Shown: positions 9,692-26,930 of the stretch, one piece after another
Numbering within the stretch: position 1 is the first letter of the stretch
How the letters are laid out: each line of letters begins with the position of its first letter
Origin: Macrostomum lignano
Lineage: Eukaryota
Length of the DNA stretch: 31,117 nucleotides
Assembly (NCBI GenBank): GCA_002269645.1
Contig: NIVC01002893.1
Coordinates: 100,335-131,451 of the forward strand
Direction of reading: 5' to 3'
Program-made: the position numbers and the translations under genes
The notes under the pieces: model-generated
Seen by the model: the letters and a program-made list of their open reading frames with translations, nothing else
Told to the model about the DNA's origin: nothing
The model's database searches: none

Positions 9692-10112
9692 CTACTCCGG
9701 CCAAGGCCAGGCCGGCAGTCCCAGGCAGAGGAAGTCGCGCAGCCTGCAGGGCAGCCAATTAGCGGTCTGCCTGGCCGCTGTCGGGCCGAGCTGCCGCAGT
9801 CGGCGCCAGACGGCTCGCCTGGCCAACGCAGTCAGCTGCTCCGGCCGCTGCCCCGCAGCCGTGGCGGCCGTCCACGCGGCCAGAGGCGCTTGGCCAGTCG
9901 ACATCGGCCGAGGCGGAGCGGCGCCGAAAGCGAGCAGAACTTCGGCAACTCGGCAGTGGCCGCGAGAGCAGGCAACCGCCAGCGGCGTTTCGGCGGCTGG
10001 ACCGCAGCGGCAGCGGCAGCGGGCCTCCAGATCGGCGCCGGCGCTGGCCAGCAGGATGGCCGCCTCCGGCTGGTTGTGCGCGGACGCATAGTGCAGCGGC
10101 GAGCCCAACCGG
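9692..10112 (-). CDS. Ankyrin-repeat and SOCS-box protein (ASB family), last exon
   Basis: Ankyrin repeats GSPLHYASAHNQPEAAILLASAGAD and ETPLAVACSRGHCRVAEVLLAFGA. C-terminal SOCS-box-like PEQLTALARRAVWRRL...LPCRLRDFL. Acceptor TTCCCACAG at 10113-10114, phase 2. Confidence 0.88.
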
Positions 10113-10361
10113 CTGTGGGAATCCAGCAGCGGAGGAAAGGGCTATGGCATGTTTTTATAGCCCACTACAAATTATTCCATCAATACGCTTACACTGCCGC
10201 TGTCAGTGGCAAAGAACACTTTTGATCCAATTTCTTTAACGACCGTATGGTTTTTTGTGCAGTTTTTTGGTGATGTACTTTTACTGAAAAACTCTAGCCG
10301 TCAAAAACATTTCTTAGAAATATCAATAATAATCGCCCGGTTTGGCAAATGACCTGCCCCA

Positions 10362-11018
10362 AGCCTCACCTGTCCGCCCCTAAGCCTCACCTGTCCGCTC
10401 CTAAGCCTCACCTGTCCGCTCCTAGGCCTCACCTGTCCGCTCCTAAGCCTCAACTGTCCGCTCCTAGGCCTCACCTGTCCGCTCCTAAGCCCACCACCTC
10501 AAGCCTCACCTGCCCACCACCTCAAGCCTCACCTGCCCACCACCTCAAGCCTCACCTGCCCACCACCTCAAGCCTCACCTGCCCACCACCTCAAGCCTCA
10601 CCTGCCCACCACCTCAAGCCTCACCTGCCCACCACCTCAAGCCTCACCTGCCCACCACCTCAAGCCTCACCTGCCCACCACCTCAAGCCTCACCTGCCCA
10701 CCACCTCAAGCCTCACCTGCCCACCACCTCAAGCCTCACCTGCCCACCACCTCAAGCCTCACCTGCCCACCACCTCAAGCCTGACCTGCCCACCACCTCA
10801 AGCCTCACCTGCCCACCAACTCAAGCCTCACCTGCCCACCACCTCAAGCCTCACCTGCCCACCACCTCAAGCCTCACCTGCCCACCACCTCAAGCCTCAC
10901 ATGCCCACCACCTCAAGCCTCACATGCCCACCACCTCAAGCCTCACCTGCCCACCACCTCAAGCCTCACCTGCCCACCACCTCAAGCCTCACCTGCCCAC
11001 CACCTCAAGCCTCACCTG
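10362..11018. repeat. 21/23-bp intronic minisatellite (sense: GTGAGGCTTGAGGTGGTGGGCAG and GTGAGGCTTAGGAGCGGACAG), about 29 copies
   Basis: Seen directly; begins exactly at the exon-intron junction at 11016/11015. Confidence 0.95.
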
Positions 11019-11350
11019 TCCGCCCGATCCAGACAGGCGCCCCGCTCAATCAGCAAGCGCACTAGTGCCAGATGTCCCGATCCCACTGCCATGTGCAGCG
11101 GCGTGGAGCCCCAATCGTTAGCGGCGTCCAACTTGGCGCCACGGCCAATCAGAAAGGCGGCAACCTCGAAGCAACCGGCTGCGCAGGCCTCGTGCAGGCC
11201 GGTGTTGCCGTTTGGGCCGGCGCGCGTGTCGACGCCGAGATCGCCGGCGCCGAGGCTGCGCGCCACGGCTGAGAGGCGGCCAGCGCGCACGTGACCAAGC
11301 CAGCGGGCGGCCTCAGCCTCGCGATGGGCGGCAGTCAATAAGAGCATCAT
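11016..11350 (-). CDS. ASB-family protein, first coding exon (two ankyrin repeats)
   Basis: NTGLHEACAAGCFEVAAFLIGRGAKLD and STPLHMAVGSGHLALVRLLIERGACLD. Donor GACAG|GTGAGG (phase 2) joins exon 2 in frame (756 nt, 251 aa). Start ATG at 11350 is assumed. Confidence 0.85.
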
Positions 11351-12318: not shown

Positions 12319-12540
12319 AAGGACACACAGAGAGCACAATTAGTTTATTTCACGCAGTGAAAGGTGAAGCAACGTGACAAATAAAAGCCTAAATAAAATT
12401 TGCAAATGAACCGAACATAAAGACGCAATTAGTTAAGAAATGCCAGTCATTTAACAAAGAAATCCAGCAACTCGAAACCAATATATTTTGCTAGCAAATC
12501 ACTTTTCTAAACACTGCTAAAAGTTCAACCTGCCAAAACG

Positions 12541-12858
12541 TCAAGCGCACAGCAGCAGCGGCACCTCGCTAAGGCTGACCTGAACGTCCACCGGGTCAAA
12601 CAGTTCGTTATCAAGAAAATAAGGCGTCTCTTTTTTCTTTTGCTTCTCCAGCTCTTCCGGCGTAGGCTGCTGGGCCGACGCGGCGGCCTCATTGTTGCGC
12701 AACAGGCGGACGGAGACGCCGCCAGCCAGTAGTTGAGTCTCAGAGCAGTCAGTGTAGAACTGATCGATTCGAGCTGCGGCAGTGGAAGAGTCGCCACCAG
12801 ACAGTCTGGTGCCGATGGCCCGCCACAGCTGGCCGCCTGATAGGCGAGCTGGGAGCAC
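12541..12858 (-). CDS. AGK: Acylglycerol kinase, exon 4 (last)
   Basis: PYFLDNELFDPVDVQVSL resembles the AGK C-terminus (SFSIDSEEYEAMPVEVKL). Acceptor TTGCCAG|GTG at 12859-12860, phase 0. Confidence 0.8.
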   Translation of the reverse strand: MLPARLSGGQLWRAIGTRLSGGDSSTAAARIDQFYTDCSETQLLAGGVSVRLLRNNEAAASAQQPTPEELEKQKKKETPYFLDNELFDPVDVQVSLSEVPLLLCA

Positions 12859-12918
12859 CTGGCAATGAAATGTTGCGGGCAGCCTTCGCTTCTGAGATCC
12901 CAGATCTCAGTCCCTAGA

Positions 12919-13102
12919 AGTAGTAATAGAAAATTACGTCCATACCCACTTTTCAATTGCAAAACACGTAATAAGGTACCCGTCAGAAATTTTATTACGC
13001 ACATACCTTATTTTTGTATTAAAAATCAAGTAGTAAGGTACCGAACCAAATGGTAGGGTATTCTACGGAATTCCAACTACACTGCACCGCACCCACAAAG
13101 AA
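12919..13102 (+). repeat. Left terminal inverted repeat of the mini-Polinton (degenerate similarity extends to about 13190)
   Basis: Reverse-complement match to 14872-15057. Confidence 0.93.
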
Positions 13103-13806
13103 CGAGAAAGAAAAGACCCCAACAACACCGATCAACCAAGTTGCTGAAAAACGACAGCTATTTCTGCATTACAAGAATAGAGGAAACACACACCCACAAA
13201 GAACAAAAGAAAAGATCTTAATAAATTGCAGAAGTCAAAATTGTGCCACAATCCCTCTGCAAGCAAAACCCAGCTCAGAACAGGACACAGGCAGTAAATA
13301 AGCCACGTGCTGCGCCCAGCCTTTTTTGTAACAGGAGTCATTCAAGACCCCAATTTTTTCATTTTCGAGAAAAGACCATTGAGACTTACGAAACTAAGTA
13401 TACTTGAATACAACTTGACTAAAATATAATACGCCAAAAGAAATATGCAGTTTTTAACTCTCAGTCACCGATCGAGAAACCGATCAAATCCAAAAAACCA
13501 GGTAATTGTAAGTGTTGCTGTGACAAGATCCGCCTGAGTTCGGTACTGACGGCCATGCACAATAATAAACTGAACCATCGTAGTAAGAAACAGTCTTTCG
13601 GTCGAATCAAGTTGACATGTCTATATATTTTAACAGATGAGATACACGATTAGTTAATTCATGACGTTAATTTCTTGATGCAAATGAACGCAAAAATGCG
13701 ATTTGACAGTCTTTTAAATAACTTTAAAATTCCCTAACGAATAGTGGATAAATAATTACAATACTAATAATACCAAATTATTTACGAGCTTCGTTCCATT
13801 GCACAG

Positions 13807-14122
13807 TCAGGCGTCCGCAGTCAAATCGCAGTAGTCAACCGTAGTGACTCTTCCCGACTCCTTCTCCCTGAAGAAGAAACGGAAGCAGCCAGCACCTAGG
13901 GCTTGTACAGCCAGGGCGTATTTACCTTCGCAAGCCGTGACATGCTCGGGGTACATATATATCCCGGCGGCGGCCGCGCAAAGACCCCGTTCTTGAACGC
14001 TGCAAAGAGAGAAGACGCAGCCCATTACTACCTCATTAGCCTCTGAATAAACAAAAAGCCCAATGCTTACCATCTCTCACATATCGCTCAGCTAGTTCCT
14101 TCTTTTGCGCGGATTTGTCCAT
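13807..14122 (-). pseudogene. Small unknown ORF inside the element (88-aa ORF 14073-13807, possibly a frameshifted continuation of MDKSAQKKELAERYVRDGKHW starting at 14122)
   Basis: GC-richer, coding-like segment divergent from the protease. No family recognised. Confidence 0.3.
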
Positions 14123-14300
14123 ATTCGTAGTGAGTGAATGCGTTTAGACAAGACTAGAAAATTTTCCGGACTGCTGTCGGTAGGATCTTATATTCAGCAA
14201 AATTACTCATAGGGACGACTGAGATCTCATGTGGTGGATTAGGGAGGGTCAGGGTTGGTTGAGAGGAAGGGGTGGATCGAGTTGGGAGCCACCAACGTAA

Positions 14301-14727
14301 AGGGAGCGAGAAGGGGGGTTCGTTCTACCTAGTCAGCAGAGGGTTTCGCGTTGGCGGCAGCTGCAACCTTTAGATGATAAAGACTATTTCTTTGTGGCGA
14401 ATACAGACACTTCGAATCTTCCTGGTAGGCATTGGGTTGTAGTTTGGGTGAGTAGCAGGCGGGTTAGGGGGGCGCCGTGGACGAAGAGTCGGGGAATATT
14501 TTGATACGCTTGGTTTAAATCCATCGGAAAATATTAGACGGTGGTTGAGGCGAGAATGTGGGGATTTTCAAAATTGGTCCTACAGCCGATTTGCTATTCA
14601 GGATCCTCGGACTGGTCATTGTGGTATTTGGGTGTTGTTTTATTTGTATTTCAAACTGACTGGTGGTGGTGGCCTTCGATTCTTTTTAACGCGTATTCTT
14701 GGTTGTGGGTCTCGTCGAAGGAAATGA
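14301..14727 (+). pseudogene. Adenain-like (clan CE, Polinton PRO-type) cysteine protease, frameshifted
   Basis: First frame: YFFVANTDTSNLPGRHWVVVWV (His at 14430). After one extra G in the G6 run at 14467-14472: GEYFDTLGLNP (Asp at 14503)...WSYSRFAIQDPRTGHCGIWVLFYL (Gln 14599, Cys 14620). Order and spacing match the NTD..PG.HWV / EYFDS.G / Q...S..CG pattern of adenovirus and Polinton proteases. The N-terminus is disrupted (TAA at 14298). Confidence 0.85.
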
Positions 14728-14871
14728 ATTTCGGCGCACGTATTTTTGCCTACGACGCTTTGCAGCACATGTGTTGCCTCTGTTCCTGTAATGCAGAAAT
14801 ATACCGAAAGTGCGTTTTTGGACAAGTTGGTTGGTTGGTTGATCGAAATTGAGATCTTTTCTTCTTTTGGA

Positions 14872-15057
14872 TTCTTTGTGGGTGCGGTGCAGTGTAGTTA
14901 CAATTCCTGTAGAATACCCTACCCTTTGGTTCGGTACCTTACTACTTGATTTTTAATAGAAAAATAGGGTATGTGCGTAATAAAATTTCTGACGGGTACC
15001 TTATTACGTGTTTTGCAATTGAAAAGTGAGGTATGGACGTAATTTTCTATTACTACT
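14872..15057 (-). repeat. Right terminal inverted repeat of the mini-Polinton
   Basis: Reverse-complement match to 12919-13102. Confidence 0.93.
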
Positions 15058-16150
15058 CCTAGATCCTAGATCCTAGATCCTAGATCCTAGATCCCAGATC
15101 CTAGATCACAGATCCTAGATCCAGATCCTAGATCCCAGATCCTAGATCCCAGATCCTAGATCCCAGATCCTAGATCCCAGATCCTAGATCCCAGATCCTA
15201 GATCCCAGATCCTAGATCCTAGATCCTAGATCCTAGATCCCAGATCCCAGATCCTAGATCCTAGATCCCAGATCCTAGATCCTAGATCCCAGATCCTAGA
15301 TCCTAGATCCCAGATCCTAGATCCTAGATCCCAGATCCTAGATCCTAGATCCCAGATCCTAGATCCTAGATCCTAGATCCCAGATCCTAGATCCCAGATC
15401 CTAGATCCCAGATCCTAGATCCCAGATCCTAGATCCTAGATCCTAGATCCCAGATCCTAGATCCCAGATCCTAGATCCCAGATCCTAGATCCCAGATCCT
15501 AGATCCCAGATCCTAGATCCCAGATCCTAGATCCCAGATCCTAGATCCCAGATCCTAGATCCCAGATCCTAGATCCCAGATCCTAGATCCCAGATCCTAG
15601 ATCCCAGATCCTAGATCCCAGATCCTAGATCCCAGATCCTAGATCCCAGATCCTAGATCCCAGATCCTAGATCCCAGATCCTAGATCCCAGATCCTAGAT
15701 CCCAGATCCTAGATCCCAGATCCTAGATCCCAGATCCTAGATCCCAGATCCTAGATCCCAGATCCTAGATCCAGATCCTAGATCCCAGATCCTAGATCCC
15801 AGATCCTAGATCCCAGATCCTAGATCCCAGATCCTAGATCCCAGATCCTAGATCCCAGATCCTAGATCCCAGATCCTAGATCCCAGATCCTAGATCCCAG
15901 ATCCTAGATCCCAGATCCTAGATCCCAGATCCTAGATCCCAGATCCTAGATCCCAGATCCTAGATCCCAGATCCTAGATCCCAGATCCTAGATCCCAGAT
16001 CCTAGATCCCAGATCCTAGATCCCAGATCCTAGATCCCAGATCCTAGATCCCAGATCCTAGATCCCAGATCCTAGATCCCAGATCTAGATCCCAGATCCT
16101 AGATCCCAGATCGATCCCAGATCCTAGATCCCAATAGATCCCAGATCCCC
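15058..16150. repeat. 7/14-bp satellite (GATCCTA GATCCCA)n, about 1.1 kb
   Basis: Seen directly. A residual stub (GAGATCCCAGATCTC) lies left of the Polinton at about 12894-12910. Confidence 0.97.
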
Positions 16151-16202
16151 CAAACCGCCAGTTTCTGGACAATAACGGACCCAATATCCCAGATCCCCAA
16201 AC

Positions 16203-16605
16203 CGCAGCCCGCAACGCCAACCTGCAGCAGTACGCCCCGGCAGTGCCGGTAGGCGTTGGGCTTAGACGAATCCCCAAAGTCGCCGGTACTTCCAGTTGAC
16301 GCCACTGGCCGCAGTCGGGGTTGACGGAGGCGGTCGCCAGCTGCTGCTGCTGCTGTGCTGGCGAGGGTCGCTGGCTGACGCTGAGCAGGCGGCTGCTCAG
16401 ACTGCGTGCCGGGGCGGGAGCCACGCAGCGGGCGCAACCGGGACAAGCCGGCGTCCAGTCAATGACGCAGCCGACTGGGACGGCGGCAGCGGCCGAAGGC
16501 GAGGCGGTCTCGGCCAGCCAGTGCAGACAGCGCTGCGCCACTGTAGGCAGGTTGCGCCGAATGGCCGAGGCTTCGGTGGCGCGCTCGCGCTGTCTAAGAC
16601 TGGAC
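16203..16605 (-). CDS. AGK: AGK exon 3
   Basis: Acceptor GGCAG|G completes TGG, giving LEW-SSLRQR (human LRWGSFRD); also GQWRQLEV (human EVWKDVQL). Phase-0 donor GCG|GTTTGG chosen to match exon 4. Confidence 0.75.
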
Positions 16606-22020: not shown

Positions 22021-22090
22021 GACCAAAGAAAAGAATGGAGTATGGACGGACTCCCAGTGTAAACAAGCAAGTTAATCAGACACCAATCAA

Positions 22091-22574
22091 TCACTCCGGA
22101 CCGTTTGCCTGTTCCAACGCTTCGGCGCAAACTTCGCCAATAACGGCACTCTCAGACGTCTCCATCTCGGACAAGCGAGGCGCTTCGGCGTTCTTCGAAT
22201 CGACCGGCTGCTCAAGCTGGTCATCTGGCACATTCGACGCCTCCAGCTGTGGAGGCGGCAAATCCCGATTATCGTGATCCCCATTGCGATCATCAGACTC
22301 CGGCAGCTGGGGTTCGTGCTTCAAAGAATCGTTTGAATGTCGTTTAGCAACGGTGCCAGCAGCCTCGTCGTGATGCAGTCGCTGGTGCCGAGTCAGGGCG
22401 TTGATCTGCACGAACCAGGCGCCGCAGATGTCGCACTCGTGAGTAACGGCTGGCCTCACGCCGCCGGGTCCGCTGTGCACATTCTGAATGTGATTCTGCA
22501 GATGGACTCGCTGGTTGAAACGGGCGCCGCAGGTTACACAGTGTGAGTGTGGGTGCGGTAGTGTCAGGTTGCAG
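22091..22574 (-). CDS. C2H2 zinc-finger protein, exon 3 (probably last)
   Basis: Acceptor CCCGCAG|C (phase 2). Fingers CVTCGARFNQRVHLQNHIQNVH and CDICGAWFVQINALTRHQRLH. Stop TGA at 22091. Confidence 0.8.
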
Positions 22575-22639
22575 CTGCGGGACGAATTAGGGGACGCGAT
22601 TTAAGTCGGTTTGAGGCCAACATGCGATTGATCTTCAGG

Positions 22640-23465
22640 GTGGGGTTATGTGACTATTCTCACTTCTCAGGGTGAGATTGTGAGGCGAATCTCAGGGTGA
22701 GGTTGTGAGGCGATTCTCAGGTTAAGATTTTGAAGCGAATCCAGGGTGAGATTGTGACGATGAGGCGATCCTCAGGGTGAGGTTTTGTGATACTATTCTC
22801 AGGATGAGATTCTAAGGCATTCTCATGGTGAGATTATAAGGCGATTCTTGGGGTGACATTATGAGACGATTCTCAGGTGAGATTGTGAGGCGATTCTCTG
22901 GGTGAGATTGTGAGACTATTCTCAGGGTGAGGTTGTGAGGCGATTCTCAGGGTGAGGTTGTGAGGCGATTCTCAGGGTGAGATTTTGAGGCGAATCTCAG
23001 GGTGAGATTATGACGATGAGGCGATCCTCAGGGTGAGGTTGTGATACTATTCTCAGGTGAGATTGTGAGACTATTCTCAGGTGAGATTGTGAGACTATTC
23101 TCAGGTGAGATTGTGAGGCGATTCTCAAGGTGAGATTATGAGGCAATTCTTGGTGTGAGATTGTGAGGCGATTTTAAGGGTGAGATTGTGAGGCGATTTT
23201 AAGGGTGAGATTGTGAGGCGATTTTAAGGGTGAGATTGTGAGGGGATTCTCAGGGTGAGATTGTGAGGGGATTCTCAGGGTGAGATTGTGAGGCTATTCT
23301 CAGGTGAGATTGTGAGACTATTCTCAGGTGAGATTGTGAGGCGATTCACAAGGTGAGATTATGAGGCGATTCTTGTTGTGAGATTGTGAGGGGATTCTCA
23401 AGGTGAGATTGTGAGGCGATTCTAAGGGTGAGATTGAGACTTATTCTCAGGGTGAGATTTTGAGT
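22640..23465. repeat. 24-25-bp intronic minisatellite (GAGATTGTGAGGCGATTCTCAGGGT)n
   Basis: Period 25 at 23161/23186/23211. Confidence 0.92.
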
Positions 23466-23547
23466 ATTAGCGGCTGTGAAGCGGCTTAAAAATCACATTG
23501 AACAAATAAAGGGGGCGTTTTGTCCAACAGCCGGGGCAAAAACTCAC

Positions 23548-24104
23548 CGATAAGAGAATCGCTTATGACACTTGTCGCACTTGAATCTTTTATTAGTGTC
23601 GTGCAACTTCATGTGCCGCCTCAGGCTGGCCTGATGCGGAAAACAGGTGCTGCAAACTCTGCACAGCCAGGGCTTGGCGCTGTCCTCGCCAAGGTAGGCC
23701 TCGTCTTCCATTAATTCGACGCCATTTGGCGGTAGAGTATGCTGCTGCTGCTGCTTTTGGTGATGATGCTGATTGGGAGTCTGGGACTGACGGCCGATAA
23801 GTGGCGCAACGGCATCGACGCCCAGGAAAGCGGCAGCCCGAGCAACCTGGCGCTGTTGGATACCGCGTTGGCAACGGCGTTTATTATAGTTGCTATGGGT
23901 ACTGTTGTTATTGTTATTATTGTTGCCATGGAGACCGTTGGGGTAACTGGCGGCTGGCGATCTGGCAGCGGTAGAGGCAACCGGCATTGCGGTAATGTAC
24001 TCAGTAGGGAATACGGGCTGGTTAGGAATTGCGGCAATAGGCCCGTGACTGCCGCTCTCAAGCATTGAGGACAGGTTGCCAAGCAGTACGGAGTCCATTG
24101 CGAT
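23548..24104 (-). CDS. C2H2 zinc-finger protein, exon 2
   Basis: Acceptor TTACAG|ATC (phase 0). KPWLCRVCSTCFPHQASLRRHMKLH and FKCDKCHKRFSYR. Donor CG|GTGAGT (phase 2). Confidence 0.88.
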
Positions 24105-24144
24105 CTGTAATACGTAATGGTGCATAGGTTGGTTAAGGTATCGA

Positions 24145-25100
24145 GTAGCCCTATACTTTGGTGGCGGGTGGCTCTATATTGGGGTGGCGGGTAGCCCTAT
24201 ATTGGGGTGGTGGGTAGCCCTATATTGGGGTGGTGGGTAGCCCTATATTGGAGTGGCGGATAAACCAATATTGGGGTGGTGGGTAGCCCTATATTGGGTT
24301 GTTGGGTAGCCCTATATTAGGGTGGCGGTGGCCTCTATTGTATATTGGGGTGGTGAGTAACTCTATAATGGGGTGGTGGGTAGCCCTTTATTGGGATGGT
24401 GGGTAGCCCTTTATTGGGATGGTGGATAGCCCTATATTGGGGTTGCGGGTGGCCCTATATTGGGGTGGCGGGTGGCCCTATATTGGGGTGGCGGGTGGCC
24501 CTATATTGGGGTGGCGGGTAGCCCTATATTGGGTTGTTGGGTAGCCCTATATTAGGGTGGCGGTGGCCTATATTGTATATTGGGGTGGTGGGTAACTCTA
24601 TAATGGGGTGGTGGGTAGCCCTATATTGGGGTGGCGGGTAGCCCTATATTGGGGTGGTGGGTAGCCCTTTATTGGGATGGTGGGTAGCCCTTTATTGGGA
24701 TGGTGGATAGCCTTATATTGGGGTTGCGGGTGGCCCTATATTGGGGTGGCGGGTAGCCCTATATTGGGGTGGTGGGTAGCCCTTTATTGGGATGGTGGGT
24801 AGCCCTTTATTGGGATGGTGGATAGCCCTATATTGGGGTTGCGGGTGGCCCTATATTGGGGTGGCGGGTGGCCCTATATTGGGGTGGCGGATAGCCCTAT
24901 ATTGGGGTGGCGGGTAAATCAATATTGGGGTGGAGGTAAGCCCTATATTGGGTTGTTGGGTAGCCCTATATTAGGGTGGCGTTGGAGTGGTGAGTAACTC
25001 TACATATATTGGGGTGGTGGGTAGCCCTATATTGGGGTTGCGTTTGGGTGGTGAGTAACTCTATATTGGGGTGGTGGGTGGCCCTTTATTGGGGTAGCGG
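24145..25100. repeat. 23-bp G-rich intronic minisatellite (GGGTAGCCCTATATTGGGGTGG[C/T])n, about 40 copies
   Basis: Period 23 at 24181/24204/24227. Confidence 0.94.
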
Positions 25101-25234
25101 GCTAAATTAGCTAAATTGAGAATTTAAATACACAACATAGCGCTAGCTTCTAACGATGCTACTAATTAAGTAGGCACATAAGCCTGCTTACGCAATCGAG
25201 CTTATTCTTAGTTAAGCTACAGTGCTCCGGTTAC

Positions 25235-25654
25235 CTTGGACTCGATGGAGCCAGCGAGGGAGGTTGCAGCGGCCGAGACGGCAGCGGAGACGGCAGCGGA
25301 GACGGCGGCAGCGTTGGCGTGATTTTCAGTTCCGTCTACAACCGCAGGCAGAGCGGTGAGCAGCAGAGAGTCTTCAGTTTCGCCGCAGTGATAAAGCAGC
25401 CTGTGCTCCTCCATCAGGTGCTTCTCCGTGGTGACGGCGCTGCAAACGGCGCAGGTGTGCAGGGTGTAGAATATTGGCTCGCCAGGATGCGCCTCGGCGA
25501 TGTGCTGCTGCAGCCGCTTCTGGGCCAGGGTTAGAAAAGTGCACTGGGGACAGCGCAACACGTGCACCAGCATCTTGTCCAGGTTGCCCAGCTGTAGTTG
25601 TTGTTGCTGCTGCTGCTGCTGCGGAAGCAGCGGTTCGACAGCGGCAGATGCCAT
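25235..25654 (-). CDS. C2H2 zinc-finger protein, exon 1
   Basis: ATG at 25654, poly-Gln tract, fingers CPQCTFLTLAQKRLQQHIAEAH and CAVCSAVTTEKHLMEEHRLLYH. Donor AAG|GTAACC (phase 0). The three exons total 1461 nt (486 aa). Confidence 0.88.
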
Positions 25655-26930
25655 TGCTGTAATTTATTGCTGCTGCCAGGGATCACTCAAGCTGAAATTT
25701 ATTAACTCGATAAATTAATAATCCTATTTGGATTAAGAAAATGGCGATTAGCAATTTATTAAGAGACGCGCAAAAATTGTCAGACCGAGAAGCGAGTCCG
25801 GAACTCAATATTTTGATGAAGATATTTATATACATTTATGCGAGCGTGTGAGTGTGCGGTCCTTTCCTTTCTCTCTCTCTCTCTCTCTTGGGAAGAGCAT
25901 CTTAGCGAGGGGGTCTGGCAATGCGAGTGGAGGATACAAGGGAGAGTGGCAGTGAGAGAGGGAGGGAGAGACAGACAGACAGAAGAGAAAGAGACTACGA
26001 AGCAAAGGGAGAAAAAGGGTCCCTTTTCCCTTCTCCCCCCCCACAAGCCATTCCCCGATCCCATTCTAGAGTTGAAGGATTTGTGTGTGTATGTGAGGGG
26101 GGAAAGACAGACAGAACAGAGAGAAAGAGAAAAGAGAGAGGGGATCTAGGATGAGGTTGGCGCCCGGCTGCTTCCTTTTTTGCCTCGCCCCCATTTCGCC
26201 CTGAGTCTGCTGGCCTTTATACACACTTAGGAGGGGAAAAGGGGAGCTGGCTGGCGCAGTTTGGGCAGAGTAGAAAAAAAGAAGAAAGAGAACTGAAAGG
26301 ATACAGAAGGGAGCGACCTAACACACTGCGGAATGATGGAAATAGGAGAGGCTGAGGGGAGCGAAGTCCCCCGCAATACGCCCTTCTCTTCTGAACAACA
26401 TTCAGTCATTCTATCTCATTTTCTCTGCCTGTCTCCGTTCGCGATTCTTTCAGCTGCTTTCTATTTTTTTCTCCCCAATAGCCTGGCAACTCCGTCCCTC
26501 AGTTCGGCGCGGGATGGGCTGGAACAGAAGTACGAGGAAAGCATAAAAAAGAGAGAAAGGCAAAGGAAGCACACAACACTCACACGAATGCGCTGAGAGA
26601 TAGACAGAGAGAAAGAGTGACAGAAAGAGCTGGGCAAGACAGGAAAGTCAGCAAAAAGAAGAAAGGCAAGACTACCCCCCCCCTCTCCGAAGGGAAAAGT
26701 AAAGTCGAGCGCCTGAGCGCGCGCACAAAACAAGTAAGAGAAAAAAGGAGAAAAAACTGTAGAGATGGAAAAGGGTGGAAAACCAGACCGGGCAGGGGGG
26801 GGGGGGTGGGGGTGGAGAAGCAAAGAAACAAATTCGCGTCCAGTAAAAAAGGAAAAGAAAGTACGTAAGAGACTACAGAGACGAGATAGGGAGAAGGAGA
26901 GGATAGAGGGAGAGAGGATGAGAGACGGAA

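Follow-up and report, generated by a model that had tools for sequence, protein, structure and literature searches.

The window (the whole stretch of 31,117 nucleotides that was analysed) contains on its minus strand a gene for acylglycerol kinase (AGK), in which the exon at 17528-17956 matches the human protein 7CGP_B (E 1.1e-9) and the Pfam domain DAGK_cat. The last coding intron of this gene carries a Polinton/Maverick relic of 2,139 bp, which makes up 64% of the intron and lies antisense to AGK, with the 3' splice site of the intron at a distance of 60 bp. This placement, proposed in a preliminary description of the sequence, was borne out by the exon match and the intron borders. The features of the locus are as follows.

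12859-16221, minus strand: last coding intron of AGK, 3,363 bp, GT-AG, with the stop-carrying exon next to it
12913-12918, plus strand: left TSD, CCTAGA, from the comparison of the flanks
12919-13103, plus strand: core of the left TIR, approximately 185 bp, starting with AGTAGT, 96% identical to the right TIR
13104-13190, plus strand: degenerate extension of the TIR, consisting of the inverted 3' end of the protease gene together with the spacer that follows, 77-91% over ungapped pieces
13191-14366, plus strand: interior of the left arm, without a recognisable gene, a mosaic of repeats known from other Polinton-bearing loci
13519-13803, no strand assigned: nested repeat of approximately 280 bp in the left arm, ends approximate
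14366-14367, plus strand: internal junction, where the left arm is fused to codon 48 of the protease with one shared base
14367-14790, plus strand: protease pseudogene, 5'-truncated, with two frameshifts
14873-15057, minus strand: core of the right TIR, ending with ACTACT
15058-15063, plus strand: right TSD, CCTAGA, also the first unit of an intronic minisatellite

A contig from run X16, which was guessed to be an RNA run, has a length of 1,396 bp and a depth of 43; it covers 12472-12861 and then continues with the exon from approximately 16222, according to a match of the letters by eye. As this contig joins AGK exons, at least one AGK copy appears to be spliced across the element. At 16235-16238 a run of four C was observed in the AGK copy of the window and in the copy on contig C1729, and five C in two other copies and in the contig guessed to be RNA. 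The frame of the last AGK exon would be shifted by this difference, and the shorter run is either a homopolymer assembly error or the mark of a broken paralog. In the genes of the window, nearly all introns contain a minisatellite of their own with a period of 13-33 bp (3495-25099), and the minus-strand exons at 9700-11340 and 22090-25680 look by eye like ankyrin-repeat and C2H2 zinc-finger genes.

The element spans 12919-15057, and its terminal motifs, its TIRs and the exact 6-bp TSD were all confirmed as they had been described. In the first 180 alignment columns of the TIR pair 173 are identical (96.1%; 5 substitutions and 2 gaps), and the cumulative identity falls to approximately 86% by column 300. 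When flank lengths from 2 to 19 were compared, the flanks matched only at a length of 6. A 7/14-bp minisatellite at 15057-16148 has the right copy of CCTAGA as its first unit, which makes a chance match of the flanks likelier than 4^-6. The phase of the 7-bp array would be kept after excision of the element together with one 6-mer, which fits a TSD of 6 bp. The copy thus has the terminal motif of a Polinton, a TIR length within 100-1500 bp and a 6-bp TSD, and it departs from an autonomous Polinton in its size, in the absence of pPolB and integrase and in its broken protease.

An element with the same TIR and within the range of 15-20 kb, for which a search had been suggested, is found once at full length in the assembly (G000:C2529:17164-35936; 18,773 bp; TSD CAGGTC; hereafter the 18.8-kb sister). 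Pfam domains assigned to its ORFs are DNA_pol_B_2 (E 5e-12) with an Endonuclease_7 domain, rve with Chromo, Phospholip_A2_4, dUTPase, dNK and TBP, and weak matches to Pox_A32 and Adeno_PX were obtained under the Pfam cut-off. Its integrase is accordingly of the rve and chromo type, and its ATPase is A32-like. A 441-aa ORF resembles double-jelly-roll capsid clusters (score 0.98), and the minor capsid was assigned from its position alone. The protease ORF matches the ASFV protease S273R (E 3.2e-6); a protein homolog search with it gave three unnamed matches among 307 candidates. The pPolB gene (L022:7085 onward; G000:C2529:23084-27384) is split over two frames near the C-terminus, which may be genuine or due to an indel in the assembly, and the sister is thus full-length, not intact as assembled.

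Comparison with this sister explains what is left inside the AGK-intron copy. The right arm (14366-15057) shows 96.1% identity to the last 692 bp of the sister, and 14367-14790 aligns to codons 48-187 of its 187-codon protease ORF, so that 47 codons are lost. The viral-type protease remnant that had been noticed in the letters is therefore confirmed by way of the sister ORF. It has frameshifts near 14467 and 14722, and its codons differ from those of the sister by 3 synonymous and 9 non-synonymous changes, a pattern as would be expected for neutral decay. Alignment to the 18.8-kb sister is confined to the TIRs and the protease end, and DNA of pPolB, integrase, ATPase and capsid is absent, in agreement with the first reading of the sequence. 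Judged on the map of the sister, approximately 16.4 kb would be missing at 14366|14367. In a Pfam scan of nine ORFs within the element, including the protease fragments, none was above the cut-off.

The interior of the left arm is missing from the 18.8-kb sister; it has counterparts at a 2.85-kb sister site (five duplicates; 81-90%) and in the nested sister C1157/C1638 (91.6%). No full-length copy with this type of left arm was found in the interior search, in which all 39 candidates were scored. The nested sister has a 290-bp gap in common with the AGK-intron copy and runs from the same left arm into a match to the left module of the full-length copy. A tblastx comparison of the left arm with the sister loci led to no gene assignment, as most of the long matches contain stops and no frame is prominent. 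Matches of 81-86% to the segment 13391-14366 lie within or beside genes of Polinton families that are more distantly related (C870, C12, C1113). The segment may be a small element with mobility of its own or a terminal module that is shared; the nested repeat is missing at the matching place in the C1113 and C12 loci.

The TIR was detected at at least 40 places in the assembly (40 of 71 candidates scored), and a 17-bp terminal word gave 40 exact matches compared to none in the control. As the right-interior search likewise scored 40 of 54 candidates, the site counts are lower bounds; for the 2.1-kb form the junction pattern search makes up for this partial scoring. Based on distinct flanks, at least 17 sites were distinguished among the stretches fetched: six with two ends, seven with one end, three stubs of 27-39 bp and one without a TIR. 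For the seven one-ended sites the partner end was not found within 10-20 kb inward and may be farther off. All six two-ended sites have a TSD of 6 bp (CCTAGA, GGCAGC, TTCGTT, GATTAT, CAGGTC and AATCTC) and no other length was seen, GGCAGC being obtained when an 8-bp terminal addition is allowed and AATCTC when the ends of two contigs are paired. A Polinton/Maverick origin had been suggested for the AGK-intron element, with the TSD lengths of sister copies as a check. Together with the same TIR on a sister that carries the core genes, these lengths show that the element is of Polinton/Maverick origin.

Near-identical 2.1-kb interiors occur five times, on C2893 (twice), C1907, C1729 and C642, and no further such copy was detected in the interior search with all of its candidates scored. 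Five copies that show, along the element, 2-6 substitutions against the window might suggest a mobile non-autonomous mini-family of MITE-like character with a fixed 2.1-kb structure that was amplified in trans. The AGK flanks are common to all five, with C642 cut by the contig end and showing the left flank only, and the last AGK exon was found in all five candidate copies, each time running into the element. A 20-mer across the junction gave exact matches only at these five AGK-locus copies and none for the reversed control; four additional matches in the assembly have two mismatches. The other short elements, of 2.85 kb (five copies) and 1.89 kb (two copies), likewise each represent one site with its own breakpoints. 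Because of the common flanks and the junction found exactly there only, the five copies represent a single insertion that was duplicated with its locus, and a mobile 2.1-kb family is highly improbable; as an account of the five matches in this assembly it was rejected. A single copy of the form had been named in advance as the outcome that would speak against a mobile family. One of the other AGK copies with the same insertion lies inverted at approximately 22 kb on the same contig (C2893:87189-92904, corresponding to window 12340-16500). Sister sites also mostly occur 2-5 times, indicating that the assembly has widespread duplication or uncollapsed haplotypes.

In a repeat-rich region with homopolymer differences between copies, a full-length element could in principle have been collapsed or misjoined by the assembler. 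The same junction is present in five copies on four contigs, and a contig from a run of another study spans it (13971-14578, depth 7, 8 differing letters, 4 gaps), which argues against a misjoin. We consider such an artefact the least probable of the explanations, slightly less probable even than amplification in trans. The empty allele that the preliminary description proposed to type did not turn up: neither an empty nor a longer allele was present in the five assembly copies, and no empty allele was seen among the contigs listed for three likely-DNA runs. In these three runs, contigs continue unbroken from the host exon for 28-29 bases into the element, under the 31-base bridging threshold, which gives only a slight indication that an empty allele is not common. 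In total, four of the 24 listed runs were compared with the window.

The element thus descends from a Polinton, without being autonomous itself and without forming a mobile family of non-autonomous copies. The explanation that we favour, with a probability of roughly 0.75, is that it is a non-coding relic at a single site, left after a long copy had integrated and approximately 16 kb of its middle had been deleted in place in the last AGK intron. A long Polinton copy would have inserted once into this intron, the retroviral-like integrase of the family creating the 6-bp TSD, as the TSD itself suggests. Ahead of the duplication of the AGK locus, one deletion of the end-joining type, with a single shared base, would then have brought the left arm up against codon 48 of the protease. 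The remnant would now be carried passively and spliced out with the intron. From one shared base, no mechanism can be pinpointed. The order of events finds some room in the TIRs: if these were identical at insertion, their divergence is approximately ten times that among the five copies, leaving time for the deletion between insertion and duplication.

The 2.85-kb site has the same left arm as the AGK-intron copy, breaks elsewhere and keeps interior pieces that the latter has lost. Neither form can be derived from the other, so that their common parent would have been long, and the parent of the AGK-intron copy was probably long as well. The long precursor at the AGK site itself is inferred, as none of the five assembly copies has a longer allele.

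Alternatively, the element may have been born short, as a 2.1-kb defective genome produced when the polymerase jumped in the course of protein-primed replication, and the integrase of a helper element would have inserted it a single time. The clean ends and TSD agree with this, and the junction is already present in all five copies. At four of the six two-ended sites pPolB, integrase and ATPase are absent and both ends and the TSD are kept, although TIR-based searching favours sites with ends and biases this count. Lengthening of the TIRs at one site (729 bp) and inverted duplications in sisters also look like errors of replication, not of host repair. On the other hand, one-ended and stub copies point to frequent deletion after insertion in this family, as the loss of an end most simply comes after insertion, and in-place decay would then be common. 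The 2.85-kb site, with two separate deletions at microhomologies of 8 bp and 2 bp, fits a stepwise decay, and no feature of the sequence calls for a helper. We regard an origin as a short genome as unlikely, with perhaps one chance in several. Somewhat more doubtful still is the broader idea that the family, when it replicates, sheds mini-genomes of 2-4 kb that resemble defective-interfering ones, consist of TIR and scraps and are inserted whole by a helper integrase, the 2.1-, 2.85- and 1.9-kb elements being separate captures. Of the two possibilities that the preliminary description had left side by side, deletion of a full element in place is thus favoured and the mobile satellite-like form is not, since the 2.1-kb form is confined to a single insertion site; the deletion would more likely have followed integration than preceded it.

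Several sister loci have features of their own. At the GATTAT site (C3475, C1378, C1839) versions of 4.1, 14.2 and 14.7 kb with the lengthened TIRs were observed, all without core genes, the extra DNA including tandem repeats and a transposase-like ORF. The site looked at first as if it showed deletion in place directly; this was rejected, as its extra DNA is without Polinton core genes. In the 1.89-kb element (C1391, C273; TSD TTCGTT) one TIR is 4-7 substitutions away from that of the AGK-intron copy in 180 columns and the other 13-14, and it is possibly a recombinant of two arm types. A mosaic Polinton at C889:27537-43192, which has lost its right TIR, is 96% identical to the 18.8-kb copy in its structural module and approximately 64-75% in its replication module, suggesting that modules may be exchanged between subfamilies.

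The excerpt of PMC8097293 describes animal Polintons with (AGT)2//(ACT)2 ends and a perfect 6-bp TSD, and states that 96% of vertebrate copies are defective and that intact vertebrate elements average approximately 17 kb. The AGK-intron copy is similar to these in its AGTAGT//ACTACT ends, long TIRs, 6-bp TSD and a cysteine-protease gene near one end, and the size of the 18.8-kb sister is close to that mean. In comparison to the intact elements in the same excerpt, the copy lacks pPolB, integrase, ATPase and capsid and belongs with the defective fossils. The ranges given in the part of bioRxiv 2023.08.22.554363 that we used are 13-25 kb for Polintons, 100-1500 bp for their TIRs and 5-8 bp for their TSDs. 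Polinton remnants and TIR-only insertions are described for the C. elegans eri-6/7 locus in the corresponding part of bioRxiv 10.1101/2024.01.15.575659, and as in AGK these are deleted Polinton pieces with TIRs in or beside host genes. In that account the eri-6/7 TIRs rearranged the gene and serve trans-splicing, whereas the contig guessed to be RNA suggests ordinary splicing across the AGK element.

Little of the life cycle of Polintons in animals has been observed. Integration of short genomes in trans, if it took place, would be evidence at the genome level that defective-interfering particles and integration by helpers occur in Polintons. We take the "N" in names such as Polinton-1N1_DR to stand for non-autonomous. 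This name is given in an excerpt of PMC9341505, and named families of this kind, likened here by name only, share with the AGK relic a short or coreless form and a Polinton origin. As far as that excerpt goes, the Polinton-1N1_DR type is catalogued as a repeat family, whereas the AGK relic is a single insertion whose junction is its own. The apparent absence of non-autonomous Polinton copies in anole, mentioned in an excerpt of PMC3014272, suggests that such families are not universal. Excerpts of PMC5499653, PMC6431247 and PMC11296320 added nothing on short Polinton forms. The AGK-intron element was not described in the literature that we searched, and Repbase-type catalogues may already list the family.

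The relic by itself matters little, as defective Polintons are the norm and AGK is spliced free of the element. It may serve as a marker, with insertion and deletion dated before the duplication of the AGK locus, and it leads to a family of Polintons that occupies at least 17 sites in the genome, one of them with a full-length copy. The TBP-like gene of that full-length sister is a more curious lead than the relic, and a TBP-like gene of Polintons was not reported in the literature searched. Its ORF (L022:4609-5595) matches Pfam TBP (E 8.8e-7) and Atlas TBP clusters (0.92), which are mostly viral, and overlaps the deoxynucleoside-kinase ORF in an element that also has the dUTPase. The TBP-like gene recurs in the sister loci C1090, C889, C48, C322 and C102.
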